From Hadesarchaea archaeon (GTDB lineage Archaea > Hadarchaeota > Hadarchaeia > Hadarchaeales > Hadarchaeaceae), in the NCBI GenBank assembly GCA_030601675.1, contig JAUWBN010000004.1, positions 2,113 to 66,112 of the forward strand: a DNA stretch of 64,000 nucleotides. Reading direction: 5' to 3'. The translations under genes and the position numbers were made by a program. Under the pieces are notes generated by a model, which searched no databases, was not told where the DNA came from, and saw nothing but the letters and a program-made list of their open reading frames with translations. This document shows positions 8,191-21,391 of the stretch, in pieces; the first letter of the stretch is position 1; each line of letters opens with the position of its first letter.

Positions 8191-8207
8191 TAATAATGTG
8201 CAATACC
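8191..8207 (+). promoter_or_regulatory. Copy 1 of recurrent ATGTGCAAT box (upstream of or overlapping the DUF134-like gene start)
   Basis: TAATAATGTGCAATACC. Shares ATGTGCAATA with the box at 9460-9480 (see findings). Confidence 0.45.
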
Positions 8208-8578
8208 ACTTTAATTTGGGTGATAGCTTGTACCAGTGGCGTCGCGGTCGGCGAAGGGGACCCGGGAGGCCGATGAAACCTAGGTTCTTGGGCTTCAGGC
8301 CCGGAGCGATAACGTTTATGCCATCCGCTCCAATAGGGCCTCCAATCGCCGCGGGTGAGCCAATCTACATGACCTATGACGAGTACGAGGCCTTCCGCCT
8401 GATTTATCACGAAGGGCTGAACCAGGAGGAGGCCGCCAAGCGGATGAAAATTTCGCGTGGGACGGTGTGGCGCTGCTTAGAGAGCGCAAGGGATAAGGTT
8501 GCCTGCATGCTCGTCGAACGCCGCCCGCTTGTGGTTACGCCTGCGCCTCCTCGGCCTTCTGAGGAGACAGGCACTTGA
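8198..8578 (+). CDS. DUF134/UPF0251-like DNA-binding protein (putative regulator)
   Basis: 126 aa. GRRRGPGRPMKPRF…F.P, then MTYDEYEAFRLIYHEGLNQEEAAKRMKISRGTVWRCLESARDKVA, a sigma-70 region-4-like HTH typical of DUF134. The true start may be downstream (TTG about 8228). Confidence 0.75.
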   Translation: MQYHFNLGDSLYQWRRGRRRGPGRPMKPRFLGFRPGAITFMPSAPIGPPIAAGEPIYMTYDEYEAFRLIYHEGLNQEEAAKRMKISRGTVWRCLESARDKVACMLVERRPLVVTPAPPRPSEETGT

Positions 8579-9438
8579 GCCAAGTCGATGGGATGCGGCT
8601 CACGGTCTTAGTCGACGATTCCAAGAACCCAATCAGACCTGAACTCACCGCCAAGCATGGGCTCTCCTTTTTCATCGAGCTGAAAGCTGGTAGACACACA
8701 ACTAATTTGCTGATGGATACCGGACCGTCCGCAGATGTCGTCTTACAAAATGCTCAGAAGCTCGATGTCGATTTGAGAAAGGTTGATTCGATTGTGCTGA
8801 GCCACGGACACTACGACCATACCGGTGGGCTCTTGGGCATCCTAAAGCACATCGGCAAAAAAGTGCCTGTGATAGCCCATCCGGGGGCCCTTGAGGCAAA
8901 ATTCGCGGCGAAGAAGAAGCGTCTCAAAAAAGCTGGCATTCCTTTTCGGGTTTCAGAGTTGGAGAAATCAAGCGGTATCTTAACTCTAAAACGGGGGCCG
9001 ACTTCTAAAGCACCTGGGATTTGGGTGAGCGGGGAAATCAAAAGAGCCAGTCCATTTGAAAAGGTTAAGGGATTCAAAACCATGAGGAGGGGCAAGCTCG
9101 TCGATGATTACATGCCGGATGATCAGGCGCTTTTCGTGAAGGTCAAGGGAAAAGGGCTTGTGGTCGTCACGGGTTGCGCTCACGCGGGGTTGATAAACAC
9201 GATTGAGCAGGCAAAAAAGGTAACGGGTTCGAGCGGCGTGTATGCGGTCGTTGGTGGGTTTCACCTAGCTGGAGCAAGTGCGGGAAGGATAAGTGCAACC
9301 ATCGAGGAGCTCCAGAAAGCTGGCGTGAAAGTAGTCATGCCATGTCACTGCACGGGAAAGAAGGCAATCACAAAGTTCTCGAAGGTCTTTGGAAAAAAGT
9401 GCAACCAGCTTAGAACAGGTAATGTAGTTACATTCTAA
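8575..9438 (+). CDS. MBL-fold metallo-hydrolase (COG1237 / MJ0301-like)
   Basis: 287 aa. LTVLVDD…GLSFFIE…LMDTGPS, metal motif LSHGHYDHTGGL, later GCAHAG and GGFHL. 4-nt overlap with the upstream gene. Confidence 0.8.
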   Translation: MSQVDGMRLTVLVDDSKNPIRPELTAKHGLSFFIELKAGRHTTNLLMDTGPSADVVLQNAQKLDVDLRKVDSIVLSHGHYDHTGGLLGILKHIGKKVPVIAHPGALEAKFAAKKKRLKKAGIPFRVSELEKSSGILTLKRGPTSKAPGIWVSGEIKRASPFEKVKGFKTMRRGKLVDDYMPDDQALFVKVKGKGLVVVTGCAHAGLINTIEQAKKVTGSSGVYAVVGGFHLAGASAGRISATIEELQKAGVKVVMPCHCTGKKAITKFSKVFGKKCNQLRTGNVVTF

Positions 9439-9459
9439 TCACCAAAAAGCTTTTATAGA

Positions 9460-9480
9460 ATTATGTGCAATAGCACAAAT
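9460..9480 (+). promoter_or_regulatory. Copy 2 of recurrent ATGTGCAAT box (palindromic TGTGC-AATA-GCACA), directly after TATA-like TTTTATAGA (9451-9459)
   Basis: ATTATGTGCAATAGCACAAAT, 15 nt upstream of ATG 9495. A GAGGTGG Shine-Dalgarno-like element lies between. Confidence 0.5.
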
Positions 9481-9494
9481 AGAGGTGGTAACAA

Positions 9495-9791
9495 ATGTGG
9501 GGGCCAGGTTTCGGCGGGGGTAGAGGCCGAGGCTGGGGCCGAGGTTGGTTTGGGCTTTGGCCGGGCAGAGGGCCTTTCAGCTATTTGCCGCCATGGCAGA
9601 GACCCAGGCGGATGTTTGGCTTCGGAAGAGGATTCGGCTGGGGGGTCAGATGGTTGGGCAATCCTTACGTCTGCGCCCGCTTCCCATGGCTTCCGAGGTG
9701 GTGGTGGGCTTACCCAGACGTCTACGGATCCCCTGGCTACGGATACCCCTACGCGGCGTATCCGCAGTACTCTTACCCGGGATACAGGTAA
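9495..9791 (+). CDS. RG/Trp/Tyr/Pro-rich low-complexity protein with GNPYVCARFPWLPRWWW motif (DUF5320-related N-terminal type)
   Basis: The frame was chosen because the motif is shared with ORF 18107. There are 4 differences over 51 nt, all synonymous third-position changes in this frame. SD-like GAGGTGG lies upstream. Confidence 0.7.
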   Translation: MWGPGFGGGRGRGWGRGWFGLWPGRGPFSYLPPWQRPRRMFGFGRGFGWGVRWLGNPYVCARFPWLPRWWWAYPDVYGSPGYGYPYAAYPQYSYPGYR

Positions 9792-9814
9792 ACAAACAAA
9801 AGGAGGTCAAAAGC

Positions 9815-10138
9815 ATGTGGTGGCCTAGAGGTCGGAGATGTTGGTGGTGGTACATGAATCCATACATGATGTATCCACCGTACCCGCCATACGTGCAAGC
9901 GCCACAGCAACCTTCGCAACCTGCGCAGCAACCCGCACAACAACCCCCAGCGGCACCTTACTACCCGCTCCCGCCGTTCATACCTCCTCCACCGACGCCC
10001 GAGCAAGAGATTGAATCGCTGGAGGCATACAAAGCTGAGATCGAAGAGGAGCTCAAAGGGATCGAGGCGAGGATAAAAGAGCTGAGGGAGTCCTTGGCCA
10101 AAGAATCCGGCGGTCAACCACCCGAAACCGGAAAGTGA
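9815..10138 (+). CDS. DUF5320-like protein (Trp/Pro/Gln-rich N-terminus, C-terminal coiled coil)
   Basis: ATG 9815 preceded by AGGAGG (9801-9806). MWWPRGRRCWWWYMNPYMMYPPYPPY…PEQEIESLEAYKAEIEEELKGIEARIKELRESL resembles the DUF5320 C-terminal coiled coil. Confidence 0.65.
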   Translation: MWWPRGRRCWWWYMNPYMMYPPYPPYVQAPQQPSQPAQQPAQQPPAAPYYPLPPFIPPPPTPEQEIESLEAYKAEIEEELKGIEARIKELRESLAKESGGQPPETGK

Positions 10139-10142
10139 TGAT

Positions 10143-10472
10143 TTGAAGCTCAAAGTGGCCGTTGCTACGAAGGGGCCCAAAGGTCTGAGGGACGAGGTAT
10201 CCTATGAATTCGGCAGGGCTCGAACTTTTACAGTTATCGACCTCGAAGGCGATCAGGTCAAAAACGTGAAAGTTGTGGATAATCCAGCAGCCTCGTATGA
10301 ATACGGGGCAGGCCCGATAGTCGTAAAGATGCTCGCTGACATGAAAATCGAAGTCGTGGTTGCGGGTGAATTCGGTCCAGGAGCTTCGGTGCTCCTCCGG
10401 GATAAAAATATTCGCGCGGCCAAGGTTAAAGCGGGGACAAACGTCAGTCGAGCTGTAAGTATAATTAGGTAG
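10143..10472 (+). CDS. NifX/NifB-C-terminal-like (dinitrogenase FeMo-cofactor biosynthesis domain, COG1433) protein
   Basis: 109 aa, TTG start. KVAVATKG…EFGRARTFTVIDLEGD…VKVVDNP…GAGPIVVKMLADMKIEVVVAGEFGPGA is the typical pattern of this small alpha/beta domain. Confidence 0.8.
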   Translation: MKLKVAVATKGPKGLRDEVSYEFGRARTFTVIDLEGDQVKNVKVVDNPAASYEYGAGPIVVKMLADMKIEVVVAGEFGPGASVLLRDKNIRAAKVKAGTNVSRAVSIIR

Positions 10473-10497
10473 GGTTGAGAGTAATTCGAGGTAACCC

Positions 10498-11385
10498 ATG
10501 AAAGTAGCAATACCTTCCAACACGCCAGGCGGACCAGATGCCGGAATATCTCCCCATTTTGGCAGATGTGATGTATTCACGGTAGTTGAAATTAAAAACG
10601 GCAAAATAGTGGGTGGGAGCACCATAGATAACCAAGGGGCGCATTTCGGTTTTGGGGCGACACCAGCAGAAATCTTGGCATCGAGCGGCATAGACGTGGT
10701 AGTGGCACAGGGCATGGGCCCCAAGGCTCTAGAGCTCTTGGGACAGAGTGGCATCAAAACATACTTTACCTCAGTCCAAACGGTCGGGGAGGCCGTGCGT
10801 GAGCTGATTGAGAGCAAGGCCAAGCTGGCCACCCCCGAGGAAGCCTGCAAAGAATCCAAGACAGCAACTGGACCACCCCAGACCCCTGTTATGCCTCCCT
10901 TTGGCCCCGGGATGGGCCGTGGAATGGGAAGAGGGATGGGCAGGGGGATGGAGCCCTATCCCTACGGACCCGCTTACCCACCGACGGCCCCTCCAATGCC
11001 GCATCCTCCACAACAAATGCCGAAGCCTTCTCCCCCACCGACAGGCCGCTTCAAGGTAGGTGTCGCAAGCCAAGGGCAAGGGGGACTCGACGACATGGTA
11101 TCGCCGATCTTTGGCAGGTCCCCAAGCTTTACCATCGTAGAAATAGAAGGGAAAGACATCAAAAACGTGAAAGTGGTGCCGAACCAATTCGTTTCTGCGC
11201 CTCGCGGTGTGGGAATCGCTGTGGTCCAGATGCTGGCAAGCGAAGGGGTGAAATTTATTTTGGCCGGACGATTTGGCCCTTGGGCATCCTCAACCTCTAG
11301 CCAATTTGATATACAAATGGTCATGGTTCCGCCTGGCGTGAAGATAAGGGACGCTATTAACCAGTACCTCATCGGTTCACGCTAG
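10498..11385 (+). CDS. Tandem NifX-like domain protein with Pro/Gly/RGM-repeat linker
   Basis: Two COG1433-like domains (MKVAIPSN…HFGRCDVFTVVEI…VVAQGMGPKA and FKVGVASQG…IFGRSPSFTIVEIEG…LAGRFGPWA). They are joined by the linker GPGMGRGMGRGMGRGMEPYPYGPAYPPTAPPMPHPPQQMP (about nt 10858-11046). Confidence 0.8.
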   Translation: MKVAIPSNTPGGPDAGISPHFGRCDVFTVVEIKNGKIVGGSTIDNQGAHFGFGATPAEILASSGIDVVVAQGMGPKALELLGQSGIKTYFTSVQTVGEAVRELIESKAKLATPEEACKESKTATGPPQTPVMPPFGPGMGRGMGRGMGRGMEPYPYGPAYPPTAPPMPHPPQQMPKPSPPPTGRFKVGVASQGQGGLDDMVSPIFGRSPSFTIVEIEGKDIKNVKVVPNQFVSAPRGVGIAVVQMLASEGVKFILAGRFGPWASSTSSQFDIQMVMVPPGVKIRDAINQYLIGSR

Positions 11386-11386
11386 G

Positions 11387-12292
11387 GTGCAGCGATTGAA
11401 GGAAATTGTGGTCGCTAGCGGGAAAGGTGGAGTCGGTAAAACCACGGTCGCTGCATCGCTCGCAGTTTTTTTGACCAAAGCTGGGACAAAAATCGTTGCG
11501 GCTGACGCAGATGTTGACGCACCAGATCTCTTGTTGGCACTGGGTGGCGGAAAGACAATTTCCTCAACCGAGATCGAAGCTTCAGAAAAAGCGGTGATCG
11601 ACGAGTCGAAATGCACAGGGTGTGGCAATTGCGTCAGTGCATGCCTGTTTGGCGCAATCGTGATGCAAAATCATCTACCAACCGTTATGCGACTCATGTG
11701 TGATGGCTGCGGTGTGTGCAAGGTTGTCTGTCCCGTCAATGCAGTTGAGGTGAAAAAAGCAGTGACGGGCACACTGAAAATCGAGGATACTAAGTACGGA
11801 TTCCCGTCGGTGACTGGGTACCTGAGGCTTGGCGAACATAATTCGGGACACCTTGTAGCGAGCGTAAAAAAATCCGGGCGGGAGACGGCTGAGGGCTTGG
11901 GGGCAAAGGCGCTCGTGGTCGACGCAGCACCGGGCATAGGTTGTCCAGTGATCGCTTCGATTTCGGGGGCCAGCTATGTCATTGCCGTTACCGAGCCGAC
12001 TCCTGCCGCCAAGCGGGATCTGGAACGCTTGGTCAAAGTAATAAAGCACTTCGGGGTCCCGGTGGGAGTGGTGATAAACAAGGCGAACCTTTCGGACGAC
12101 TTCAGGGTCACGCTTGAGGACTGGATAAAACATGAGCTAGGCTATCAGATTTTAGGCGAGATCCCCATCGACTACGAAGTTGTTAAAGCTTTGGTGAACA
12201 TGGCGCCGGTCACCGAGTTTAATCCAAATGCTGAAGCATCGAAGATCTTGACCGCGATAGCCAAACGCGTGAAGGATGAGGTCTCACCATGA
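11387..12292 (+). CDS. MinD/ParA-family P-loop ATPase with inserted 2x[4Fe-4S] ferredoxin domain (COG1149 type)
   Basis: GTG start. Deviant Walker A SGKGGVGKTTVAASLA. CTGCGNCVSACLFGAI and CDGCGVCKVVCPVNAV cluster motifs. DAAPGIGCPV Walker-B region. Confidence 0.85.
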   Translation: MQRLKEIVVASGKGGVGKTTVAASLAVFLTKAGTKIVAADADVDAPDLLLALGGGKTISSTEIEASEKAVIDESKCTGCGNCVSACLFGAIVMQNHLPTVMRLMCDGCGVCKVVCPVNAVEVKKAVTGTLKIEDTKYGFPSVTGYLRLGEHNSGHLVASVKKSGRETAEGLGAKALVVDAAPGIGCPVIASISGASYVIAVTEPTPAAKRDLERLVKVIKHFGVPVGVVINKANLSDDFRVTLEDWIKHELGYQILGEIPIDYEVVKALVNMAPVTEFNPNAEASKILTAIAKRVKDEVSP

Positions 12293-13242
12293 AATCTGGT
12301 GGGGAGGCATCAGCGAAATTACTCAGGAGAAAGCGCGTGGGCGTGCCCGTGATAGCAGTAACTGGTGGGAAGGGCGGCACGGGCAAAACCACGGTTGCGG
12401 TGAATTTAGCCGTGGGTCTGAGCATGAAAGGTTCCAAGGTCATGTTGGTTGACGCAGATGTTGATTGCCCTTGTTGCGCGATGTTGTTTGGAGCAGAACT
12501 GAGTAATGGCGAGGAGGTTAAAACATTCAAGCCTGTGATCGATGCTGCAAAATGCACTGGATGCGGAAAGTGTGTGGCGGTTTGTCATGACCACGCATTG
12601 GTGGGTCTTGAGGGGCAAGTCCCGTCACTTTTCGAAGAACTCTGCTCTGGGTGCAAAGCATGCCAGCTCGTCTGTGAAGTTGACGCCATAAAGAGTGGTC
12701 AGAAAGTTCTCGGTACCATCTACATCACAGATTCAAATGGGATTAAACTGGTGGTGGGCGAACTCAAACCGACCGAGCCGAGATCACCAATCGTGGCGCG
12801 CGCGACCATGCTCAGAGCCGCTGAGGAGCTTCGGAAGGACAAATACGACATCGTGATCGTGGACACTGCTCCGGGAATTCATAACGTGGTGGCTCAAGCC
12901 CTTTGGGAAGCCGACCTAGCGCTGGCTGTGACCGAGCCGACCCCGCTCGGAGCTCACGATCTGGGTTTCATGTTAGAGCTCACCGAGGAACTGGGGCTGC
13001 CGGCCGAGGTCATCCTGAACAAGGCGGATATCCCAGGCGGTTTGAAGGATGAAGTGGTGAAGACGAGTCGTGATCGGGGAGTTAAAATCGTTGCGGAGAT
13101 ACCGATGGACGAAGAGCTGTTGCGCTCCTACGTTTCGGGTGAGCCGCTTGTGAGAAAATCCCCTAAGAGTCCCTCTGCAGTTGCACTATTAGCTCTGGTC
13201 CCGCACATTCGTGAAATGTTTGTAAAAGGAGGTGAAACCTGA
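12289..13242 (+). CDS. MinD/ParA-family P-loop ATPase with inserted ferredoxin domain (second paralogue)
   Basis: TGGKGGTGKTTVAVNLA. CTGCGKCVAVCHDHAL and CSGCKACQLVCEVDAI. VDTAPGIHNVV. 4-nt overlap with the upstream paralogue. Confidence 0.85.
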   Translation: MKSGGEASAKLLRRKRVGVPVIAVTGGKGGTGKTTVAVNLAVGLSMKGSKVMLVDADVDCPCCAMLFGAELSNGEEVKTFKPVIDAAKCTGCGKCVAVCHDHALVGLEGQVPSLFEELCSGCKACQLVCEVDAIKSGQKVLGTIYITDSNGIKLVVGELKPTEPRSPIVARATMLRAAEELRKDKYDIVIVDTAPGIHNVVAQALWEADLALAVTEPTPLGAHDLGFMLELTEELGLPAEVILNKADIPGGLKDEVVKTSRDRGVKIVAEIPMDEELLRSYVSGEPLVRKSPKSPSAVALLALVPHIREMFVKGGET

Positions 13243-13481
13243 TGGCGCAACCACCCACCCCACCACCGCTGCCAACCAAAAAATTTCAATGTTTTGCATG
13301 TGGGAACATCATAGAGGTGCCTCGGGGCATGCCTAAGCCAGCGGCATGTCCTAGATGCGGTGCTCCGCTCGTGGCGATTCATCGTGTGGACAAGGGGCCG
13401 CCAGGTGGAAGAGGCGCGGGAAGGCGCGGTGCTGGTGGCCCTGGCGGAGGGCGCGGCAGGGGGCCACGTTGGTCTCAGTAG
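13242..13481 (+). CDS. Small C4 zinc-ribbon protein with Gly/Arg-rich tail
   Basis: 79 aa. ATG overlaps the upstream TGA by 1 nt and is preceded by GGAGGTGA. CFACG…x…CPRCG ribbon, then GGRGAGRRGAGGPGGGRGRGPRW. Confidence 0.55.
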   Translation: MAQPPTPPPLPTKKFQCFACGNIIEVPRGMPKPAACPRCGAPLVAIHRVDKGPPGGRGAGRRGAGGPGGGRGRGPRWSQ

Positions 13482-13582
13482 GCTTAGCCTCATTGAGATT
13501 TGAGATGCTGAGTTGATCTGGGTTAATCTAGAGGAAAAAATCAGGTGAAAATTAAAAACAGAACTTAGAGGAGGAAAGCTGA

Positions 13583-14308: not shown

Positions 14309-14363
14309 TTAAATCGGTAAAAGAGAGATTAGATAGAAGTCTAGGATAATTCGGTGAATAAAA

Positions 14364-15228: not shown

Positions 15229-16404
15229 ATGTTAGGAGTCAAGGCCGAAGCCATCACCGCGGAAGAAATGGCCAAGGTAGATCAAAAAGCAGCGGAATTC
15301 GGGATTCCCAGCATCCTGCTTATGGAAAACGCCGGGGGGGTCGTCGCAAGGATCATAACAGAAAAATTCGGTACCAAATTGAAGGTGGCAGTTTTTGTTG
15401 GCACGGGCAACAATGGCGGGGATGGGCTCGTCGCTATCAGACACTTGATGAGTAAAAGGGCCAAAGTAGATGTCTTCTTGATCGGAGATCCGGGGGATAT
15501 CCGTACTGAAGAAGCGCGCCTGAACTGGAATGTGATACAAAAAATGAGGCAAAATGTCAAGATCCATGTGGTTAAAAGCATCTCCGACCTTAAGGGGGCA
15601 GCGCGCTACCTAAAGCGTGCAGATGTGATTATCGATGCTATGCTTGGGACTGGCCTAAAGGGTCCGCTCAGGGAGCCTTTCGCTTCCGCGGCGCGCTTGG
15701 TGAACGTGTCGAAGCCCCCCGTAGTTTCAATAGACTCGCCCACCGGGTTGGATCCATCGACTGGCGAGGTACACGGGGTCGCGGTCAAGGCAACTTATAC
15801 TGTGACTTTTCACAGGATGAAAATGGGATTTCTCAAGGCGAAGGGGTACGTGGGCGAGGTCATAGTAGCTGATATCGGGATCCCTCAGGAAGTCGAGGCT
15901 GCAGCCATCGGCAAGCGCCGGCGTTTACAGTGGAGAGTTGGGAAGGCACCGAAAGAAACCCCGAAGTTAGTGAGCGCGTGTCTTTTGGGAATTAACTGTA
16001 GGTATGACGGTCAAAACAACCTTAACGAGAAAGTGATGCGGCTGGTCGAAAAAGAGGTGCTGATCCCCGTCTGTCCAGAGCAGCTTGGCGGGCTCGGAAC
16101 GCCAAGGGAGCCCATGGGGGTAATCGGAGGAGGGGGTTCGGAGGTTTTAGACGGGAAGGCGAGGGTTATAAACAGGAGCAATAAGGACGTGACGGAGAAC
16201 TTGGCGAGAGGCGCGGAGGAAACTTTGAAGATCGCGAGGTCGTCAGGCGCGAGGGAAGCGATCTTTAAGGCGAGAAGTCCCTCCTGCGGGTGCGGAAAAA
16301 TTCACGATGGGACGACTCCCAACAAACTCATCGAGGGGGACGGGGTCACGGCTGCATTGTTGAAGAGGAACGGCATCCACGTAATCACGGAGGATGGCCT
16401 TTGA
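15229..16404 (+). CDS. NAD(P)H-hydrate epimerase (YjeF N-terminal domain) fused to a DUF523 (TudS-like) domain
   Basis: N-terminal half LMENAG…FVGTGNNGGDGLVAIRHL…IIDAMLGTGL (YjeF_N). C-terminal half from about aa 247 VSACLLGINCRYDGQNN…PVCPEQLGGLGTPREP…RSPSCG (DUF523 pattern). Confidence 0.8.
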   Translation: MLGVKAEAITAEEMAKVDQKAAEFGIPSILLMENAGGVVARIITEKFGTKLKVAVFVGTGNNGGDGLVAIRHLMSKRAKVDVFLIGDPGDIRTEEARLNWNVIQKMRQNVKIHVVKSISDLKGAARYLKRADVIIDAMLGTGLKGPLREPFASAARLVNVSKPPVVSIDSPTGLDPSTGEVHGVAVKATYTVTFHRMKMGFLKAKGYVGEVIVADIGIPQEVEAAAIGKRRRLQWRVGKAPKETPKLVSACLLGINCRYDGQNNLNEKVMRLVEKEVLIPVCPEQLGGLGTPREPMGVIGGGGSEVLDGKARVINRSNKDVTENLARGAEETLKIARSSGAREAIFKARSPSCGCGKIHDGTTPNKLIEGDGVTAALLKRNGIHVITEDGL

Positions 16405-16872
16405 TTACACCTTGCCCTCAAGCCAGCCAATTTTAACGTTATTTTTCTGGTCAAACTTTGGAACATATGGTTTGATGTCCAAGAGAGGGGTGCCGTCGAG
16501 CATGTCGATACCCCTCACCTTCAAGATATTTCCTTCGCGTTCCAACAGCTCCACGATAGTGAGCCCTATTTGATTCGGCCTGTTCGGGGATCTCGTGGCG
16601 AAAAGTCCGCGCGGGGCATCGTCTAAATAAGGTTTTACCAGAAGCCCAAACGAATTCAGGTAATGTTCTTTTTTTATCGAGCGCTTGACAGACTTGTGAA
16701 ACATGTACAAAATTATGAGGTGGGAGAAACCCTCGACATCCTTCAGCCCCTCCTCGTACTCCTTAAAAACTTCGATTTCACCGATTTCCTTCGATTTGTA
16801 TGCTTGGTGGGGCGCTTCTCCGTCCTTTTTGTATGGCGTGTGGATTATCCCTATGGGTTTTAATTCCCTCAT
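16405..16872 (-). CDS. TsaA/TrmO-like (YaeB, UPF0066) tRNA methyltransferase family protein
   Basis: Core MRELKPIGIIHTPY…FSHLIILYMFH…FATRSPNRPNQIGLTIVELLEREGNILKVRGIDMLDGTPLLDIKPY. The internal ATG 16872 was chosen, giving an ATGA overlap with the upstream MBL gene. The track ORF extends to 16956. Confidence 0.8.
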   Translation of the reverse strand: MRELKPIGIIHTPYKKDGEAPHQAYKSKEIGEIEVFKEYEEGLKDVEGFSHLIILYMFHKSVKRSIKKEHYLNSFGLLVKPYLDDAPRGLFATRSPNRPNQIGLTIVELLEREGNILKVRGIDMLDGTPLLDIKPYVPKFDQKNNVKIGWLEGKV

Positions 16873-17516
16873 TCTATCACCAGCCCCACCCCACACCTCA
16901 CGTATTGTTTCGGGAACGCGCGCGCTAACTCCCTTTTGTATGAGGTACAGTGGCATGGAGAAATCAATTTAACTCTTTTTAGAATGTCGAAATCACTGAA
17001 TCCATGGAAACCACCGATGACGCCGTATATCTCGCCAAACTTTGATGCCGCAATTACGATTCTATGCATCCCAGAATGAGCGCAGCCCGTAATCACAAAT
17101 ACGCCTCTTTTGTTCAAACAGATTAATGATTGTTCTTTAATGCAAGTGCCTAGCTCGCCTGTCGTAAATACATCCTTACGTATCTGCATTGGTTTTCGAG
17201 CCTCAACCAGTTTTGTTTTTGCCGGAATTTGATTTTTTAACCACTTGGAAAACGATGTCAAGGCGTACACAGAAAGGTCTTGGTTTTCTTCAATCAGATC
17301 CGATAAACCACCAGTATGATCCCCATGCCCGTGCGACAATACAACGGATCTTATATCGCTCGGATCGATGCCCAATTTTTCCATGTTGTCTAATAAGGCA
17401 ACGCCATCGCCGCCAGTGTCGAATAAAATGTCATTATCGATTAAACAGGAAAAACCCCAGCCCGCCGTCAATCCTCTCTTTAACACTTCGTTGTCGTAAA
17501 CTACTGTTATTTTCAT
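16869..17516 (-). CDS. MBL-fold metallo-hydrolase (COG1237-type), second paralogue
   Basis: MKITVVYDN…GWGFSCLIDNDILFDTGG…VLSHGHGDHTGGL…GCAHSG…GGFHG. The internal ATG at 17516 was preferred over the track start 17564. Confidence 0.8.
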   Translation of the reverse strand: MKITVVYDNEVLKRGLTAGWGFSCLIDNDILFDTGGDGVALLDNMEKLGIDPSDIRSVVLSHGHGDHTGGLSDLIEENQDLSVYALTSFSKWLKNQIPAKTKLVEARKPMQIRKDVFTTGELGTCIKEQSLICLNKRGVFVITGCAHSGMHRIVIAASKFGEIYGVIGGFHGFSDFDILKRVKLISPCHCTSYKRELARAFPKQYVRCGVGLVIE

Positions 17517-17563
17517 GCCCGCAAGTCTCCTTTCGTAATTTTGTACAGTAAAGTTTATATACA

Positions 17564-17585
17564 ATTATGTGCATATGCCCATAAT
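17564..17585 (+). promoter_or_regulatory. Copy 3 of recurrent ATGTGCA(A/T)AT box, after TATA-like TTTATATA (17554-17561), in a divergent promoter region
   Basis: ATTATGTGCATATGCCCATAAT (imperfect palindrome). Located between the MBL gene (minus) and the DUF5320-like pair (plus). Confidence 0.45.
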
Positions 17586-17590
17586 AGGAG

Positions 17591-18106
17591 ATGGGGAAAA
17601 TGGCTTACGGTCAGGGAGGTTGGAGAAGGAGAAGAAGGAACATGTATTACCTCACCGGCCTGCCGGGATGGATGAGGTTCGGATATTCACCAGGATGGGT
17701 AGGCAGAAGCCCCACAGGACTGCCACCAACCGCTCAATATTTGATGCAGACGGGACAGGTGCCTCAACCCACACCTTACACGGCACAGCCACCAGCGCAA
17801 ATGGTGGTTCCTACACATGAGAACTGCGCTAATTTTGGGAATGGGTTCTGCCAATTATACGGTGCTGCCGTGGATCCTAGCGGCAGCGCCTGCCCAAGCT
17901 TCACACCGAAAAGTTCCGCTTCAGCGCCACAGACACCACCAACGCAACCCATGTTTCAAGCACCTGCCAGTTTTCCTCCAGCACAAATGTCCCAGATACC
18001 CAAAGAACAGGAAATTCAGGTGTTGGAGGGTCAGGCAAGAATGTTTGATCAACAACTAGAACAAATCAAAAGAAGGATTGAAGAACTCAAAAGGGAGGTG
18101 AAATGA
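17591..18106 (+). CDS. DUF5320-like protein (Arg-rich N-terminus, Cys motif, Pro/Gln-rich spacer, C-terminal coiled coil)
   Basis: 171 aa. GGWRRRRRNMYYLTGLPGWMRFGYSPGW…CANFGNGFCQLYG…CPSF…IPKEQEIQVLEGQARMFDQQLEQIKRRIEELKRE. The start may be ATG 17600. Confidence 0.65.
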   Translation: MGKMAYGQGGWRRRRRNMYYLTGLPGWMRFGYSPGWVGRSPTGLPPTAQYLMQTGQVPQPTPYTAQPPAQMVVPTHENCANFGNGFCQLYGAAVDPSGSACPSFTPKSSASAPQTPPTQPMFQAPASFPPAQMSQIPKEQEIQVLEGQARMFDQQLEQIKRRIEELKREVK

Positions 18107-18616
18107 ATGCCGTTCGGCTGGGGAAGAGGATTTGGTAGAGGATTTGGTAGAGGATTCGGATGGGGGGGCAACCCCTACGTCTGCGCGCGGTTCCCATGGC
18201 TTCCGAGGTGGTGGTGGACTGGAATGTACGGCCCCACGACACCTTTTACGGGAGCACCGGGGATGCCCTACACGTCGTATGGCCAATATGGCACGCCAGG
18301 GATGCCTTATTCGCCAGACTACACATCGCCTTATGGCCAATATGGCACGTACGCAACGTCAGCCCCAACAGCTGCACCATGGACAACCTATACACCGTAC
18401 TACGCGCCACCCTACAGCACGTATGCACCACCGGCCACAGCAATGCCGAGCATGACCTACCCATCGCCATATACACCATCACCTTACCCAACAGGCGCGG
18501 AGATCCCTCAAATTCCGAAGGAACAAGAAAGACAAATGCTTGAAGGTCAGGCGACAGCACTTCAGCAGCAATTAGACCAGATCAAGAAGAGGCTTGAAGA
18601 GCTAAGCAAAATGTAG
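18107..18616 (+). CDS. RGF-repeat / GNPYVCARFPWLPRWWW-motif protein with Tyr/Pro/Thr-rich spacer and DUF5320-like coiled coil
   Basis: ATG immediately after the upstream TGA, with a GGGAGGTGA SD. MPFGWGRGFGRGFGRGFGWGGNPYVCARFPWLPRWWW…IPKEQERQMLEGQATALQQQLDQIKKRLEELSK. Paralogous to 9495-9791 (N-terminus) and to 17591-18106 (C-terminus). Confidence 0.7.
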   Translation: MPFGWGRGFGRGFGRGFGWGGNPYVCARFPWLPRWWWTGMYGPTTPFTGAPGMPYTSYGQYGTPGMPYSPDYTSPYGQYGTYATSAPTAAPWTTYTPYYAPPYSTYAPPATAMPSMTYPSPYTPSPYPTGAEIPQIPKEQERQMLEGQATALQQQLDQIKKRLEELSKM

Positions 18617-18705
18617 GGCTCCAACAGCCTTATCAGCGAGTTCGACAACTGGGGCGAAGAGTACTACGATACGTGTGTAGCCTCATTAAATCAGATAGAC
18701 AAATA

Positions 18706-18722
18706 CTTATTGTGCAATCGCC
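18706..18722 (+). promoter_or_regulatory. Copy 4 of recurrent box (TTGTGCAAT variant) upstream of the Mrp/NBP35 gene
   Basis: CTTATTGTGCAATCGCC, 16 nt upstream of ATG 18738. Confidence 0.4.
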
Positions 18723-18737
18723 GAAAAGGAATTTTAA

Positions 18738-19598
18738 ATGGGAGTGAAGCAAGTGGAAGGAAGGATGAAGGAAATACAGGAGCAGGAGAAGCGTATCAAA
18801 ATACGGATGGCCAAAATCAAACATAAACTGGTGATACTAAGCGGAAAGGGCGGAGTCGGCAAGAGTACCATCACCGCTAATTTAGCCATCGCATTGGCAC
18901 GCAAGGGTCACAAGGTGGGTGTTTTAGATATTGACATTCACGGCCCAAGCATCCCCAAAATACTCGGCATCAGGGGACAGGGGTTGACCACAGGGCGGCT
19001 CGAAGGCCTAGGTATATTCCCGGCCAAAGGACCGCTCGACACCAAGGTCATCTCCATGGATTTCCTCCTTCCGAGCGATGAAACTCCAGTCATCTGGCGC
19101 GGCCCCATGAAGACGGGCGCGATCAGGCAGTTTCTTGCGGACGTAGCATGGGGCAACCTAGATTTTCTGCTTGTAGATGTACCTCCAGGCACTGGCGATG
19201 AACCCCTTAGTTTGATGCAGTTGTTGCCCGGCATCGACGGCGTTATTATTGTGACTGCTCCTTCTGAGGTTTCCCAAATCGTCGTCAAGAGGGCCGTCGG
19301 ATTTACAAGAGAGTTGCACGTGCCTGTACTAGGTATCGTTGAAAACATGAGCGGATTTATCTGTCCAAAGTGCGGGGCAGAAGTTGATATTTTTGGAAGC
19401 GGAGGAGGTCAAAAAATAGCGGGAGAACTGGGAGTGCCATTCCTCGAAAGGATTCCAATCGATTCAAAGATATGCGAGGATTCGGACAGAGGGACACCCT
19501 TCATCATCGAGCATGCCGAAACTCCAGCAGCCAAGGCATTCATGCGAGTGGTGGACAAAGTGGAGGAATTTTTAAAACAGCAGGGGGCACGAGCTTGA
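18738..19598 (+). CDS. Mrp/NBP35/ApbC-family Fe-S cluster carrier ATPase
   Basis: LSGKGGVGKSTITANLA (deviant Walker A), DIDIHGPSIP, VDVPPGTGDE, and the ICPKCG CxxC motif characteristic of the family. Confidence 0.88.
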   Translation: MGVKQVEGRMKEIQEQEKRIKIRMAKIKHKLVILSGKGGVGKSTITANLAIALARKGHKVGVLDIDIHGPSIPKILGIRGQGLTTGRLEGLGIFPAKGPLDTKVISMDFLLPSDETPVIWRGPMKTGAIRQFLADVAWGNLDFLLVDVPPGTGDEPLSLMQLLPGIDGVIIVTAPSEVSQIVVKRAVGFTRELHVPVLGIVENMSGFICPKCGAEVDIFGSGGGQKIAGELGVPFLERIPIDSKICEDSDRGTPFIIEHAETPAAKAFMRVVDKVEEFLKQQGARA

Positions 19599-20353
19599 TC
19601 GTCGACGAGTTATTGGGTCTGATCGAGGAGCGGAGAAGCCAGCTAGAAGACCTGACGCTCTCGAGGGTATGCGTGAGTCTCTGCTATACTGCGGTGATGC
19701 TAGATAACGGCTACGTTGGGCTCTGTCACACGCCTACTGAGGACATTGCACACACTCATTGGGGCCGCAGGCGGGACTTCCACGGCTTCAAGGCCTTGGA
19801 AATCACCCGCCTGGCGAATTCGCTTGACATGATTGAGAAGACAGTTGGCATCGCGACGTTGAATGCCCTCTCACAGTACCTGATGGACTCCGAAGGTTAC
19901 GAGCGGCAGTTTGGAATAGACGCCTTTGATGCGATAGATGTGAGGAGGGAAGACAGCGTCGCAGTGGTTGGGTACATAAGGCCCCTAGTCGGGAAGCTGA
20001 GGGCAAAGGCCCGCGAAGTCCACGTTTTCGAGCGCAACCCCCAGTTGAGGGGGGATGCCCTACCTGATACTTTTGTCGACTCGATATTGCCGAAAGCGGA
20101 TGTCGTGGTTATAAGCGGGTCGAGCTTGGTCAACGGAACGATTGATAGGTTGCTCGAGCTATCCAAAAGAGCTAGATTCGTGGTTTTTGCGGGGCCAACA
20201 GCCAGCACTTTGCCAGGGCCTCTTTTCAAGCGGGGTGTAAACATCGTGGCGGGTGTTCGCGCGAAAGGTCCTAAGGTGATGGATGCAGTAGCCGAGGCCA
20301 AACCATTTGTGGCATTCAAAGAGCTTGTGGAGAAGTATACTTTAAAAAGATGA
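19595..20353 (+). CDS. DUF4213/DUF364 ('putative heavy-metal chelation' Rossmann-like) protein
   Basis: VAVVGYIRPLV…VHVFERNP…LPKADVVVISGSSLVNGTIDRLLEL…VVFAGPTASTLPGPLFKRGVNIVAGV matches the DUF364 pattern. The TTG start proposed at 19595 overlaps the Mrp TGA (TTGA). The track ORF begins at 19472 inside Mrp. Confidence 0.75.
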   Translation: MIVDELLGLIEERRSQLEDLTLSRVCVSLCYTAVMLDNGYVGLCHTPTEDIAHTHWGRRRDFHGFKALEITRLANSLDMIEKTVGIATLNALSQYLMDSEGYERQFGIDAFDAIDVRREDSVAVVGYIRPLVGKLRAKAREVHVFERNPQLRGDALPDTFVDSILPKADVVVISGSSLVNGTIDRLLELSKRARFVVFAGPTASTLPGPLFKRGVNIVAGVRAKGPKVMDAVAEAKPFVAFKELVEKYTLKR

Positions 20354-20442
20354 AAACAGCCTGAGGGGTAAAACTGAATCGGCTTAAGCACATCGCTGCG
20401 GAGCTCAAAGAGCATGCACCTTTCACCGCTTTTGGGGCGGGC

Positions 20443-20982
20443 GTGGGGGTGATCGTGATGGTCGCTGTGTGTCTGGCCAAGCTCGACCCAGAGGTCTCTC
20501 ACCACGCCTTCCACATCCTGCACCCCGCCCACATGCTACTTAGCGCGACCGTGACCGCCGCGATGTTTAGGTTGCACAGGGGGGGTTTCGGGGCCTCGAT
20601 AGCCGTCGGACTCGTGGGGGCGGCTGGGATATGCGCGATAAGCGACATAGTGTTCCCCTACGTGGGAGGCACGCTACTTGGAGCCACCATGACCTTACAC
20701 GTATGCATTTTAGAACACCCGTGGCTTGTGCTCCTACCTGGGCTCGTCGGCGCGACAATCGGCGCTTTGACGGGGCGCTGGACCAAGTGTCCGCACGCGG
20801 CGCACGTGTTGATAAGCACCTTGGCCTCTCTCTTTTACCTCATCGGATTCGGGGCGGTGGACTGGCTCCCGATGTTCCCGCTCGTGTTCGTGGTGCTGTT
20901 CATAGCAGTATGGATCCCATGTTGTACGAGTGATATCGTGTTCCCTCTCCTGTTCGTGAGGAAAGGGAGGCGTCGGAGGTAA
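20443..20982 (+). CDS. Polytopic membrane protein with His/Cys-rich motifs (unassigned family)
   Basis: About 5-6 hydrophobic segments. HHAFHILHPAHMLLS, HVCILEHPW, CPHAAHVLIS and WIPCCTSD. The frame is open back to 20365 with no canonical start there, so the start is uncertain. Confidence 0.55.
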   Translation: MGVIVMVAVCLAKLDPEVSHHAFHILHPAHMLLSATVTAAMFRLHRGGFGASIAVGLVGAAGICAISDIVFPYVGGTLLGATMTLHVCILEHPWLVLLPGLVGATIGALTGRWTKCPHAAHVLISTLASLFYLIGFGAVDWLPMFPLVFVVLFIAVWIPCCTSDIVFPLLFVRKGRRRR

Positions 20983-20986
20983 TCGT

Positions 20987-21391
20987 GTGGACGAACTAGA
21001 TGAAATACGCAAAAGGAAGATGAAAGAGCTGGAAAAGAGATTTTTGAGAAAGAGAGAAGAAACGGCGATCGACGCGCCGGTTCAAGTCACCGCTGCTACA
21101 TTTGACCGTTTTATCAAGGAGCACCGAGTGGCGGTAATCGATTTTTGGAATGAATGGTGTACCCCCTGCATTATGATCGCACCCATTATCGAAGAGCTAG
21201 CGAAAGATTATGCCGGAAAGGTGGTTTTTGGAAAGCTGAACACCGATGAAAGCCCAGCGATTGCAGTGAAGTATAACGTGATGGCCATTCCGACCCTGCT
21301 GTTCTTTAAGAACGAAAAACCCGTGGATCGAATAATCGGTGCCGTGCCAAAGGACCATATCGAATGGAAGCTCAAGAAAATAATCGGATAG
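20987..21391 (+). CDS. trxA: Thioredoxin
   Basis: 134 aa, GTG start. FWNEWCTPCIMIAPI active site (WCxPC) and a thioredoxin-fold tail (…MAIPTLLFFKNEKPVDRIIGAVP). Confidence 0.85.
   Translation: MDELDEIRKRKMKELEKRFLRKREETAIDAPVQVTAATFDRFIKEHRVAVIDFWNEWCTPCIMIAPIIEELAKDYAGKVVFGKLNTDESPAIAVKYNVMAIPTLLFFKNEKPVDRIIGAVPKDHIEWKLKKIIG

Follow-up and report, generated by a model that had tools for sequence, protein, structure and literature searches.

The window analysed here, 64,000 nucleotides of a Hadesarchaea archaeon contig, contains a series of closely packed genes which the initial annotation divided into two modules, one on either side of a ZIP transporter gene, and took to be one coordinated system. 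The locus raises the question of which of these genes belong together, and what they do. The 8.2–20.4 kb region is the Hadarchaeota version of a gene cluster widespread in anaerobic archaea and bacteria, and it has a precedent: anaerobes carry a poorly understood ORP ("orange protein") gene cluster, and the present locus is its archaeal counterpart, with matches to the Desulfovibrio ORP complex and to IssA/MTH1175-type NifX-like proteins. The system is known already from the Desulfovibrio ORP work, yet it is still unexplained and has no established biochemical role. Its core is composed of DUF134, one to three each of the DUF5320 and the Cys-poor NifX-like proteins, two MinD-Fer4 ATPases and Mrp/NBP35, and the locus most likely handles inorganic iron-sulfur material. 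As a whole, we favor with modest confidence an explanation that combines an ORP-counterpart core, an operator-based regulon and a mechanism of Fe-S handling, the mechanism being its less certain part.

Genes of the locus and their protein families

All of the genes named in the initial annotation were found at or near their reported positions, including the DtxR-FeoA, FeoB and ZIP context genes. Profile searches with Pfam and NCBIfam supported the family calls, although two DUF5320 matches fell under the cut-off of 27 bits. The features are as follows.

5642–6259, + strand: DtxR-FeoA fusion (Pfam Fe_dep_repress, Fe_dep_repr_C and FeoA)
6260–8182, + strand: FeoB (Pfam FeoB_N/Gate/FeoB_C)
8197–8210, + strand: operator-like site 1, TGTGCAATACCACT, after the feoB stop and ahead of the DUF134 start
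8198–8578, + strand: DUF134 regulator (PF02001, 61 bits; cut-off 27)
8575–9438, + strand: MBL1, MBL-fold protein of the HGHYDH subfamily (Lactamase_B; motif SHGHYDHTGG); 4-nt overlap (TTGA) of its start with the DUF134 stop
9464–9477, + strand: operator-like site 2, TGTGCAATAGCACA, a perfect palindrome
9495–9791, + strand: R/G/W-rich protein, 98 aa, pI 10.6, one Cys
9815–10138, + strand: DUF5320-like protein, 107 aa (PF17253, 19.3 bits, below cut-off)
10143–10472, + strand: NifX1, single-domain NifX-like protein (PF02579, 55 bits)
10498–11385, + strand: tandem NifX-like protein, two PF02579 domains
11387–12292, + strand: MinD-type ATPase 1 with an inserted 2x[4Fe-4S] ferredoxin domain, Orp3/Orp4-like
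12289–13242, + strand: MinD-Fer4 ATPase 2, a paralogue (ATGA overlap with ATPase 1)
13242–13481, + strand: C4 zinc-ribbon protein, MJ0401 family (TGATG overlap with ATPase 2)
13583–14308: ZIP transporter
16405–16872, − strand: TrmO_N-domain protein, a recurrent accessory neighbor
16869–17516, − strand: MBL2, MBL-fold protein of a short subfamily
17568–17581, + strand: operator-like site 3, TGTGCATATGCCCA, in the promoter region between the divergent MBL2 and DUF5320 genes
17600–18106, + strand: DUF5320 type B protein (20.2 bits, below cut-off)
18107–18616, + strand: DUF5320 type A protein (PF17253, 27.8 bits, just above the cut-off of 27)
18711–18724, + strand: operator-like site 4, TGTGCAATCGCCGA, 27 nt 5' of the Mrp ATG
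18738–19598, + strand: Mrp/NBP35/ApbC-type Fe-S carrier ATPase (PF10609, 321 bits; CPKC motif)
19595–20353, + strand: DUF4213+DUF364 protein, an occasional accessory (TTGA overlap with Mrp)
21834–22427, + strand: DUF1847 protein (Pfam)
22438–23214, + strand: small radical-SAM enzyme (Pfam)
38136–40028: AOR, confirmed as a context gene

The family calls for thioredoxin, CMD/AhpD, DUF1847 and radical SAM were also confirmed. Module 1 is as tightly arranged as had been described, with TTGA, ATGA and TGATG overlaps and a widest intergenic gap of 56 nt. The two RG/aromatic-rich proteins reported in this module are both present, but the true start of the second (ORF 9545–10138) is the ATG at 9815, which has GGAGG upstream; the protein is rich in W/P/Y at its N-terminus and forms a coiled coil at its C-terminus. 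The first, encoded at 9495–9791, returned no Pfam hit and no coiled coil, and is homologous to the N-terminal half of the type A DUF5320 proteins, with which it shares the motif CARFPWLPRWWW (invariant as C-x3-PW-x-PRWWW). An exhaustive phmmer search with this 98-aa protein gave 29 matches, all of them small stand-alone proteins. In module 2, the type B protein carries a GLPGWMRFGYSPGW motif, three Cys and a C-terminal coiled coil (with an alternative start at 17591), and the type A protein combines RGF repeats with the CARFPWLPRWWW motif, a central part rich in Y/P/T, and a helix at its C-terminus. The AF2 model of the type A protein is of low confidence (mean pLDDT 48) and contains a helix at 138–168 only, besides a four-residue turn (34–37).

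NifX1 is of the MTH1175/ORP/IssA type, with no Cys and a pI of 9.7; its closest solved relatives are MTH1175, PH0822 and the ORP protein 2wfb (PDB matches to 1eo1 at 4e-11 and 2wfb at 3e-5). The two domains of the tandem protein are joined through a Pro-rich GMGRGMGRGMGRGM linker. The NifX-like proteins of the locus, which have 0–2 Cys and pI >9 and whose domains match the NCBIfam MrpORP model at 34–75 bits, belong to the IssA/MTH1175 branch (IssA: PMC5524996). MinD-Fer4, NifX-like and Mrp proteins are all components of the Desulfovibrio ORP complex (PMC6345978, PMC8359166), and the ATPase pair corresponds to Orp3/4, the NifX-like proteins to Orp5/8 and Mrp to Orp9. The locus Mrp matches the MrpORP model NF041136 over model positions 1–254 of 365 (353 bits, cut-off 450) and lacks the C-terminal NifX-like domain that MrpORP has. 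The zinc-ribbon protein ends in an RG-rich tail and is conserved chiefly in Hadarchaeota.

Both MinD/ParA ATPases contain a KGGxGKT motif and two CX2CX2CX3C motifs each (the first starting at 11387 or 11396). ATPases of this type could position a cargo or act in cell division, with DUF5320 as a small adaptor or condensate-forming partner as in McdA/McdB and the NifX-like proteins as the cargo. A largely unstructured region followed by a C-terminal helix, as predicted for DUF5320 in its low-confidence model, resembles ParA-partner proteins. A link of the ORP complex to cell division was suggested by its authors (PMC8359166), with MrpORP located at the poles (PMC6345978, PMC8359166). This role is very unlikely here, as a P-loop domain that carries two inserted [4Fe-4S] motifs indicates redox or cluster chemistry over surface patterning; DUF5320 is moreover tied more closely to NifX than to the ATPases (92% vs 73% of surveyed loci, together with adjacency and fusion), and no MinC, MinE or ParB-like partner was seen.

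Conservation of the core across phyla

Conservation was surveyed in 51 DUF5320-anchored loci outside Hadarchaeota, each of at least 8 kb and drawn from 21 archaeal and bacterial taxa (20 of the 51 being from Bathyarchaeia), with neighbors assigned by phmmer on stop-to-stop ORFs of MAG contigs. NifX-like genes lie near DUF5320 in 92% of these loci, MinD-Fer4 in 73%, DUF134 in 69% and Mrp in 35%. Recurrent accessories are the small radical-SAM enzyme (39%), MBL (25%), DtxR (24%), FeoB (20%), TrmO-like proteins (18%, and 13% of MBL-anchored loci) and DUF364 (10%). In the first 2 kb around the anchor there are 42 NifX genes per 100 kb, and past 8 kb close to none. Within Hadarchaeota, tblastn with DUF5320 (query A1) against MAG contigs gave matches of up to 88–95% identity.

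Co-occurrence is supported for DUF5320, NifX-like, MinD-Fer4 and Mrp, but the proposed partnership of MBL and DUF5320 is not: only 2 of 39 MBL-anchored loci have a DUF5320 gene (26% have MinD-Fer4), and pairing of the two is peculiar to Hadarchaeota. DUF5320 instead has the NifX domain as its constant partner and is often fused to it; NifX+DUF5320 fusions made up all of the best 120 clusters listed in one search, and 53 of 88 non-Hadarchaeota matches in a second. The presence of an MBL plus DUF5320-like pair in both modules had been read as a duplication in support of that partnership, but MBL1 and MBL2 are only 33% identical and represent two old subfamilies, and recent duplication is rejected. 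MBL2 is translationally coupled to the TrmO_N gene via an ATGA overlap.

Cross-phylum synteny with steep distance decay, NifX-DUF5320 gene fusions, and an operator-like site common to four transcription units in both modules together support the core of both modules (DUF134, DUF5320-type, NifX-like, two MinD-Fer4 and Mrp/NBP35 proteins) as one functionally linked system. The claim of one coordinated system is supported for the core, and not for ZIP, DUF89, YjeF_N-TudS, thioredoxin, CMD and the membrane protein, which are found near 0–8% of the 51 loci, are not conserved neighbors outside Hadarchaeota, and lack the shared operator. Chance or lineage-specific adjacency of functionally unconnected genes would fit these six, as neighbors only within Hadarchaeota. 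For the core, whose arrangement recurs beyond chance across 21 taxa with distance decay, fusions and a shared cis-element, it is highly improbable and is rejected on the synteny and fusion data.

The DUF134 regulator and a shared operator-like site

The operator-like site common to both modules is a new observation of this analysis. Four sites of the type TGTGC-N4-GCACA are present in the window, 20–35 nt upstream of start codons, and precede the DUF134-MBL1 unit, the DUF5320-NifX-ATPase operon, the divergent MBL2/DUF5320 pair and the Mrp-DUF364 unit, which therefore suggests that the two modules form one regulon. Each of the four retains an intact first half-site. A perfect palindrome occurs only at 9464, and the remaining three sites keep part of the second half-site. 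A TATA-like box, TTTATAG, is found just 5' of site 2, which itself lies 31 nt 5' of the ATG at 9495, and site 3 adjoins a TATA-like element common to the divergent genes. All four are conserved in orthologous loci, including site 4, an analogue of which also precedes the Mrp-led operon in loci L004 and L005.

The exact palindrome was seen again beside DUF134 and DUF5320 genes across phyla. A set of 70 loci from other phyla contains 34 GTGC-N4-GCAC sites, and 24 of these lie in the 16% of DNA adjoining core-gene 5' ends (binomial P = 3e-12), chiefly at DUF5320 and DUF134 genes, with exact palindromes in only 17 of 43 DUF134-containing loci. Judged by co-location only, the site is probably bound by DUF134. 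This protein (101 bits against NF003257, under its cut-off of 115), which probably starts at TTG 8228, has a sigma-70 region-4-like HTH and an Arg-rich N-terminal arm; an alignment of 45 homologs showed no conserved Cys or His that might sense metal.

Iron supply and a possible route of iron-sulfur handling

Directly upstream of the core, DtxR-FeoA and FeoB (5642–8182) form a ferrous-iron sensing and uptake unit, preceded by tandem DtxR-box-like sites at 5593–5631; it is a linked supply module outside the core. The metal/Fe-S link proposed initially is plausible on the iron side, because DtxR and FeoB also adjoin the cluster in other phyla, at the frequencies given above. In M. voltae grown on FeS2, FeoB, DtxR and two IssA-clade proteins rise together (PMC8516115, PMC9431491), and IssA is a thioferrate store from which ferredoxin clusters are rebuilt (PMC5524996). 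The 98-aa R/G/W-rich protein (RGW_A1: G 22, P 14, R/K 12, aromatic 29, Cys 1, pI 10.6) resembles in composition the published Thermococcales IssA tail (70 aa; G 15, P 11, cationic 7, aromatic 14, Cys 1, pI 10.7; PMC5524996).

In the mechanism we propose, the basic NifX-like domains would hold an anionic species of inorganic Fe-S that is supplied via FeoAB and is either thioferrate-like or a precursor of clusters. The DUF5320 proteins, predicted to be mostly unstructured, R/G/W/Y/P-rich and with a single Cys, would hold this species together with them, acting in effect as an IssA tail provided in trans, and their coiled coil probably oligomerizes them. The MinD-Fer4 ATPases, as a heterodimer, may load or reductively release the Fe-S material via ATP-gated electron transfer, and Mrp would build [4Fe-4S] clusters and deliver them to apo-proteins; MrpORP hands clusters to Orp3/Orp4 in vitro (PMC6345978). 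Accessory functions would fall to MBL, TrmO-like, DUF364 and the small radical-SAM enzyme.

The NifX-like proteins might instead bind thiomolybdate- or thiotungstate-type or other heterometal clusters for W/Mo enzymes such as the AOR, suggested initially as a client and encoded in the window. ORP, which NifX1 matches through 2wfb, binds a Mo-Cu-S cluster non-covalently (cited in PMC6345978), given as [S2MoS2CuS2MoS2] for the D. gigas orange protein. This is quite unlikely for the present locus: the AOR lies 18 kb off beyond unrelated genes, nothing found supports the link, and the cluster occurs in many lineages irrespective of AOR. The conserved neighbors include the iron genes DtxR and FeoB, while ZIP is near only 4% of loci; no Mo/W-related gene was among the families tracked in the 51 loci, a set that did not include Mo/W transporters or pterin genes.

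The radical-SAM enzyme, also suggested as a client, bears on a split NifB-like pathway, in which it would build or alter a complex Fe-S(-C/X) cluster, carried by NifX-like proteins and destined to be the dedicated cofactor of a specific enzyme, and the MinD-Fer4 proteins, as NifH-like SIMIBI ATPases, would supply ATP-dependent electrons or insertion. PF02579 domains bear NifB-co and FeMo-co in NifB, NifX and NafY (PMC5524996), the P-loop halves of the ATPases match NifH-family models, and the same radical-SAM subfamily often directly adjoins the NifX-like gene. We nevertheless consider such a pathway unlikely, since the subfamily is missing from 61% of loci, the conserved neighborhood has neither a NifEN-like scaffold nor a consistent client enzyme, and no operator-like site was seen in the window before the DUF1847/radical-SAM pair. 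The protein is short (258 aa), has no PDB relative and no NifB signal among its NCBIfam matches, the best of which are weak and to W-cofactor maturase, viperin and MoaA models. In the surveyed loci, where its members score 134–254 bits and often lie beside NifX, this radical-SAM subfamily appears to be a recurrent accessory gene and not just a client.

Gene content of the two modules

The ORF listing and the profile searches recovered all of the genes named in the initial annotation, and the gene cluster described there is confirmed.

Genes of the cluster and its flanks
Upstream flank: DtxR-FeoA and FeoB
8198/8228-8578, plus strand: DUF134 protein (PF02001, 61.2 bits, cut-off 27)
8575-9438, plus strand: MBL1, MBL-fold protein with SHGHYDHTGG
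9495-9791, plus strand: R/G/W-rich protein of 98 aa
9815 (start ATG, preceded by GGAGG; not 9545), plus strand: DUF5320-like coiled-coil protein
10143-10472, plus strand: NifX1, single NifX-like domain (PF02579)
10498-11385, plus strand: tandem NifX-like protein (PF02579)
11387-12292 and 12289-13242, plus strand: two MinD-type ATPases (MinD-Fer4; CbiA/ParA and Fer4), each with GKGGxGKT and two CX2CX2CX3C motifs
13242-13481, plus strand: C4 zinc-ribbon protein, MJ0401 family
Between the modules: ZIP transporter, DUF89 phosphatase, YjeF_N-TudS fusion
16405-16872, minus strand: TrmO_N protein, translationally coupled to MBL2 (ATGA)
16869-17516, minus strand: MBL2, MBL-fold protein
17600-18106 and 18107-18616, divergent from MBL2/TrmO_N: two DUF5320 proteins
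18738-19598: Mrp/NBP35 (PF10609, 320.7 bits, model positions 1-245 of 246; SGKGGVGKST, CPKC)
19595-20353: DUF4213 and DUF364 protein, TTGA overlap with Mrp
Module 2: His/Cys-rich membrane protein, no family match
Module 2, after the membrane protein: thioredoxin
Downstream flank: CMD, DUF1847 and a small radical-SAM gene

The genes of module 1 are joined by TTGA, ATGA or TGATG overlaps, or else by gaps of at most 56 nt. The DUF134 protein passed the PF02001 cut-off and also matched Sigma70_r4 (28 bits), and carries an HTH of the sigma-70 region-4 type. The 18738-19598 protein has the full-length PF10609 domain, deviant Walker A motif and CXXC of the Mrp/NBP35/ApbC carriers, and is a full-length member; unlike a stand-alone housekeeping gene of that family, it stands in a dedicated operon with DUF364, behind an operator-like site shared with other genes of the cluster. 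Between the modules, a single ORF (15229-16404) joins a YjeF_N NAD(P)HX epimerase domain to a 2-thiouracil desulfurase (TudS/DUF523) domain; this fusion is kept in Hadarchaeota relatives and elsewhere does not adjoin the cluster. The sole match in Rfam and tRNA scans was a tRNA-Gly outside the cluster region. A literature search found no functional account for DUF5320, DUF134, UPF0251, COG1149, COG1433, COG1342, COG1237, 7DCK or TM1679.

Conservation of the neighbourhood and a shared operator-like site

The contig is also present in a public run assembly. The arrangement is wholly or partly retained in relatives at ~80% and ~60% protein identity, and tblastn found DUF5320 proteins in Hadarchaeota MAGs with 88-95% identity to the 18107-18616 protein. 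For a wider survey, one genome per GTDB species was scanned with the motif C-x3-PW-x-PRWWW, which is invariant among type-A DUF5320 members, as the anchor; the 80 loci obtained were annotated by phmmer with the window's own proteins as queries. Frequencies were taken from the 51 loci outside Hadarchaeota that were 8 kb or longer (mean 13.6 kb), representing 21 taxa that include Bathyarchaeia, Thermoplasmata, Methanocellales, Nitrososphaeria, Planctomycetia, Aminicenantes, Omnitrophota, Acetothermia and WOR-3. NifX-like genes were present in 92% of these loci, MinD-Fer4 in 73%, DUF134 in 69%, radical SAM of the same subfamily as in the window in 39%, Mrp in 35%, MBL in 25%, DtxR in 24%, FeoB in 20%, TrmO-like in 18%, DUF364 in 10%, DUF89 in 8%, ZIP and thioredoxin in 4% each, the membrane protein in 2%, and CMD and YjeF_N in 0%. 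Densities dropped steeply with distance: NifX genes numbered 42 per 100 kb in the first 2 kb around the anchor and ~0 past 8 kb, and DUF134 went from 18 to 0 per 100 kb. The usual order places DUF134 divergent from one to three DUF5320 genes followed by one or two NifX genes, with MinDFer-MinDFer-NifX-NifX-Mrp nearby.

The core therefore consists of DUF134, DUF5320, NifX, two MinD-Fer4 ATPases and Mrp, and these genes recur together across the 21 taxa with a steep distance decay. MBL, radical SAM, TrmO-like, DUF364 and DtxR/FeoB are recurrent accessories, and the other genes in the originally proposed span are lineage-specific neighbours. The initial interpretation, a single coordinated system for handling a metal or Fe-S cofactor, is partly supported: the conserved core, the distance decay and the gene fusions speak for it, and the ZIP, DUF89, YjeF_N, thioredoxin, CMD and membrane protein genes, at 0-8%, fall outside it. 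On one metagenome contig (L007:1-7276) the cluster adjoins genes for a contractile phage-tail-like apparatus, with Phage_sheath_1 and Phage_base_V matches, probably by coincidence.

A motif of the type TGTGC-N4-GCACA occurs in four intergenic regions of the cluster, on the coding strand and 20-35 nt before start codons.

Operator-like sites in the window
8197-8210: TGTGCAATACCACT, before DUF134
9464-9477: TGTGCAATAGCACA, perfect palindrome just past a TATA-like box, before the DUF5320-NifX-ATPase operon
17568-17581: TGTGCATATGCCCA, in the divergent MBL2/DUF5320 region
18711-18724: TGTGCAATCGCCGA, before Mrp

The 9464 site alone is perfectly palindromic, the others having a complete first half-site and only a portion of the second one. 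The octamer TGTGCAAT has four copies in the 64 kb, three of which are operator-like sites, a window-level statistic that is circular because the motif was spotted there by eye; the independent test is enrichment across phyla. Among 70 loci from other phyla, 24 of the 34 exact GTGC-N4-GCAC palindromes fell in the 16% of the DNA that lies beside the 5' ends of core genes (binomial P 3e-12). They belong to 21 loci and stand beside DUF5320 (18), DUF134 (16) and NifX (4). The exact palindrome was found beside DUF134, DUF5320 or NifX in Bathyarchaeia, Thermoplasmata, Nitrososphaeria, Hecatellales, Patescibacteria, Fraserbacteria and Acetothermia. The sites are also conserved in the orthologous promoters of diverged Hadarchaeota loci and precede Mrp-led operons in independent contigs. 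Positions of the motif on surveyed contigs outside the window include L007:7896-7940, L004:12020, L020:9730-9800 and L052:9835-9900. No such site was found before ZIP, DUF89, YjeF_N, the membrane protein/thioredoxin unit or the DUF1847-radical-SAM pair, so that its presence or absence matches the conservation data, with radical SAM as the exception.

DUF134 is the sole DNA-binding protein that travels with the site, and we therefore infer that it is the cognate regulator. The TGTGC-N4-GCACA site is a candidate DUF134 operator linking the two modules, which is a new point. The DUF134 protein has an Arg-rich N-terminal arm in addition to its HTH; a metal-sensing site within it was considered and rejected, as none of its Cys or His residues is conserved.

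A tandem pair of DtxR-box-like palindromes, TTAGGCTTACCCAA and TTAGGCATACCTAA, is located at 5593-5631 just before the dtxR-feoA-feoB operon, suggesting autoregulation, and a similar sequence, TAGGCTTAGCCTCA, precedes the ZIP gene at ~13480. In a scan across the window the DtxR-box pattern was not statistically significant.

DUF5320, NifX-like and accessory proteins

Against the PF17253 gathering cut-off of 27 bits, the 18107-18616 protein scored 27.8, the 17600-18106 protein 20.2 and the 9815-10138 protein 19.3, and the 9495-9791 protein gave no match. Homologues of the 18107-18616 protein are mostly annotated with PF17253, and all are small and stand-alone. The 98-aa protein (9495-9791) has only the N-terminal motif in common with DUF5320; an exhaustive phmmer search with it returned 29 matches, all N-terminal and all to small stand-alone proteins, and thereby showed no homology between the type-A motif and NifX-linked tails. 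For DUF5320, the AF2 model is of low confidence (mean pLDDT 48) and contains only a C-terminal helix (138-168) and a four-residue turn (34-37).

NifX and DUF5320 were found in one polypeptide in 120 of the 120 best protein clusters and in 53 of 88 non-Hadarchaeota matches, and this DUF5320-NifX partnership is a new point. Fusions of NifX, an RG-rich tract and a DUF5320 coiled coil (e.g., L006:8812-9402, on a surveyed contig) are abundant in Bathyarchaeia and Thermoproteota and occur also in Bipolaricaulota and WOR-3, and some NifX-like proteins bear GMGRGMGRG-type C-terminal tails without a coiled coil. The linker of the window's tandem NifX-like protein is Pro-rich, with GMGRGMGRGMGRGM. The best solved relatives of NifX1 are MTH1175 (E = 4e-11), PH0822, the TM1290-like 1rdu and the ORP protein 2wfb (2.9e-5). 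The zinc-ribbon protein (13242-13481) ends in an RG-rich tail (GGRGAGRRGAGGPGGGRGRGPRW, pI 12) that resembles the R/G tracts seen in DUF5320 proteins and in the NifX linker.

The recurrence of an MBL gene next to DUF5320 genes in both modules had been taken as a sign that the two work together. As a general partnership this does not hold. Of the 80 MBL-anchored metagenome loci fetched, 39 were 8 kb or longer; even with a profile HMM included, a DUF5320 gene was found in just 2 of these 39. MinD-Fer4 was present in 26% of the 39, NifX in 18%, Mrp in 18% and TrmO-like genes in 13%. With an identity of only 33%, MBL1 and MBL2 each stand for an old subfamily, and HxHxDH, GCxH, GGFH and (P)CHC are retained in both; that these two subfamilies are accessories of the cluster is also a new point. 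In addition to HxHxDH, the Cys residues of GC(A/S)H and (P)CHC are invariant in either subfamily, a hint that Cys may ligate a metal or cluster there. Solved relatives of MBL1 and MBL2 (2p4z, 3h3e, 7dck) are structural-genomics entries only, without an assigned function, and those of DUF364 are likewise structural-genomics entries only. Searches found no solved relative of the radical-SAM protein and no full-length structure for the MinD-Fer4 family. In the context of the cluster, a tRNA methyltransferase role for the TrmO_N-only protein seems unlikely.

Comparison with known systems and a possible function

The NCBIfam MrpORP model (NF041136) matched the Mrp protein with 353 bits (cut-off 450) over positions 1-254 of 365 and also matched the NifX-like domains, which points to the Desulfovibrio ORP complex. 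In that complex, Orp3 and Orp4 are MinD-like ATPases with two [4Fe-4S] motifs, Orp5 and Orp8 are Di-Nase (PF02579) proteins, and Orp9/MrpORP combines Mrp with a Di-Nase domain; the orp genes form two co-regulated divergent operons, and it has been suggested that they arose in archaea (PMC6345978, PMC8359166). MrpORP hands clusters to Orp3/4 in vitro (PMC6345978). The cluster resembles the ORP system of D. vulgaris Hildenborough in its two paralogous MinD-type ATPases with two [4Fe-4S] ferredoxin motifs each, its small PF02579 proteins and Mrp/NBP35 ATPase with CXXC, its confinement to anaerobes, and its two co-regulated units with a palindromic regulator site, a candidate here from sequence. 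It differs in that the window's Mrp ends at 286 aa without a PF02579 (Di-Nase) domain, in the additional DUF5320 proteins, two MBL-fold proteins, TrmO-like protein, DUF364 and Zn ribbon, and in the adjoining feoAB. Regulation differs as well, ORP depending on sigma-54, IHF and the Fe-S-sensing PAS EBP OrpR, as against the putative DUF134 control at TGTGC-N4-GCACA. Archaea are not known to have sigma-54; profile annotation found no EBP gene in or beside the cluster, where DUF134 and a different palindrome are present. The locus is a version of an already known system of unexplained function. The Mo-Cu cluster of ORP would suit a role in Mo/W-sulfide handling, a less well supported reading that the conserved neighbours and motifs favour less.

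IssA of Pyrococcus furiosus (PF2025, Q8TZG9) has a PF02579 domain followed by a tail that is first Pro-rich and then cationic, aromatic and Gly-rich and has one Cys; thioferrate is the form in which it stores Fe and S, and it can rebuild ferredoxin clusters (PMC5524996). MTH1175 is the reference for the IssA clade (PMC5524996, PMC8351635). M. voltae grown on pyrite shows joint increases in FeoB, DtxR and two IssA-clade proteins, accompanied by a thioferrate-like EPR signal (PMC8516115, PMC9431491). IssA proteins are defined by an N-terminal IPR003731/PF02579 domain, a pI of 9 or above and under 5 Cys, with a cationic, aromatic tail having at least 20% Gly in its last 40 residues in the same polypeptide (PMC5524996 supplement). 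NifX1 (0 Cys, pI 9.7) and the tandem NifX-like protein (2 Cys, pI 9.2) have the N-terminal characters (pI, Cys and PF02579) and terminate with a globular domain in place of the tail. A tail-like composition is found in the internal linker of the tandem protein and in the separate DUF5320 proteins.

Composition of the 98-aa protein and of the IssA tail (70 aa; values printed in PMC5524996)
Gly: 98-aa protein 22; IssA tail 15
Pro: 98-aa protein 14; IssA tail 11
Cationic (R/K): 98-aa protein 12; IssA tail 7
Aromatic: 98-aa protein 29; IssA tail 14
Cys: 98-aa protein 1; IssA tail 1
pI: 98-aa protein 10.6; IssA tail 10.7

The published P. furiosus issA cloning primer, used as an exact DNA pattern, had no match in metagenome or genome contigs, and the comparison of tails therefore rests on the figures in PMC5524996. 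Since the 98-aa protein gave only small stand-alone relatives, the link to IssA is compositional and architectural, not one of demonstrated homology. It comprises a Cys-poor PF02579/IPR003731 domain of high pI; a run rich in Pro that leads into R/G/aromatic-rich sequence, which is probably unstructured and contains one Cys; and a tie to iron supply and sulfide-rich anaerobic life. The tail of IssA is its own C-terminus, whereas the tail-like sequences here are an internal linker or separate DUF5320 proteins, mostly with a coiled coil; the papers cited here also treat IssA as a single protein and describe no dedicated ATPases with it.

NifB, NifX and NafY have the same PF02579 fold, to which anionic Fe-S(-Mo) clusters bind without covalent attachment, and their systems likewise associate a radical-SAM gene with NifH-like P-loop ATPases. 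The cluster is unlike them in that the window is without nif genes (nifB model 19 bits, cut-off 344) and its domains are Cys-poor. A split NifB-like pathway, with the radical-SAM enzyme adjoining NifX, might make a special cluster; this reading too is less well supported, as the conserved neighbours and motifs favour it less.

In the mechanism that we propose, FeoAB would supply Fe(II), and anionic Fe-S species would be bound by the NifX-like domains and DUF5320 chains. The MinD-Fer4 heterodimer would couple ATP to electron transfer, loading or reductively releasing the Fe-S species, and Mrp would build [4Fe-4S] clusters and pass them on, as MrpORP does for Orp3/4 in vitro, with expression presumably set by DUF134. 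The MinD-type ATPases might instead form a ParA/MinD positioning device with DUF5320 as the adaptor, again a less well supported reading on the same conserved neighbours and motifs. A bolder form of the storage and dispensing model, which we consider rather unlikely, is that the DUF5320 proteins act as detached counterparts of the IssA tail and, together with NifX, MinD-type ATPases and Mrp, make up a DUF134-controlled Fe-S storage and dispensing organelle, widespread among anaerobes, of which ORP is the bacterial form. The DUF5320 proteins would then be disordered R/G/W-rich chains, oligomerised by their coiled coil, that nucleate a protein-bound iron-sulfide phase together with the Cys-poor NifX-like domains; redox-active MinD-type ATPases would fill and empty this phase, and Mrp would be its outlet.

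Most of the ISC/SUF machinery is missing from many strict anaerobes. The cluster bears on how these organisms store and distribute iron and sulfide, a question of which two pieces are the ORP complex, under study since 2007 or earlier, and IssA, reported in 2017. ORP-type ATPases, IssA-type NifX, DUF5320, DUF134 and Mrp form one conserved module in more than 20 archaeal and bacterial lineages, with TGTGC-N4-GCACA as the operator-like palindrome that would mark the regulon.

Elsewhere in the window, 46599-48197 encodes a eukaryote-type topoisomerase IB (Topoisom_I_N, Topoisom_I and Topo_C_assoc) in this archaeal sequence, and a similar gene is also located near the cluster in metagenome contig L004. 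A low-GC island at 49950-53581 (35-39%, vs 55-60% in its flanks) encodes an 884-aa type IIG restriction-modification enzyme resembling Eco57I/MmeI, alongside a 287-aa ORF that matched no family, and was probably acquired horizontally.
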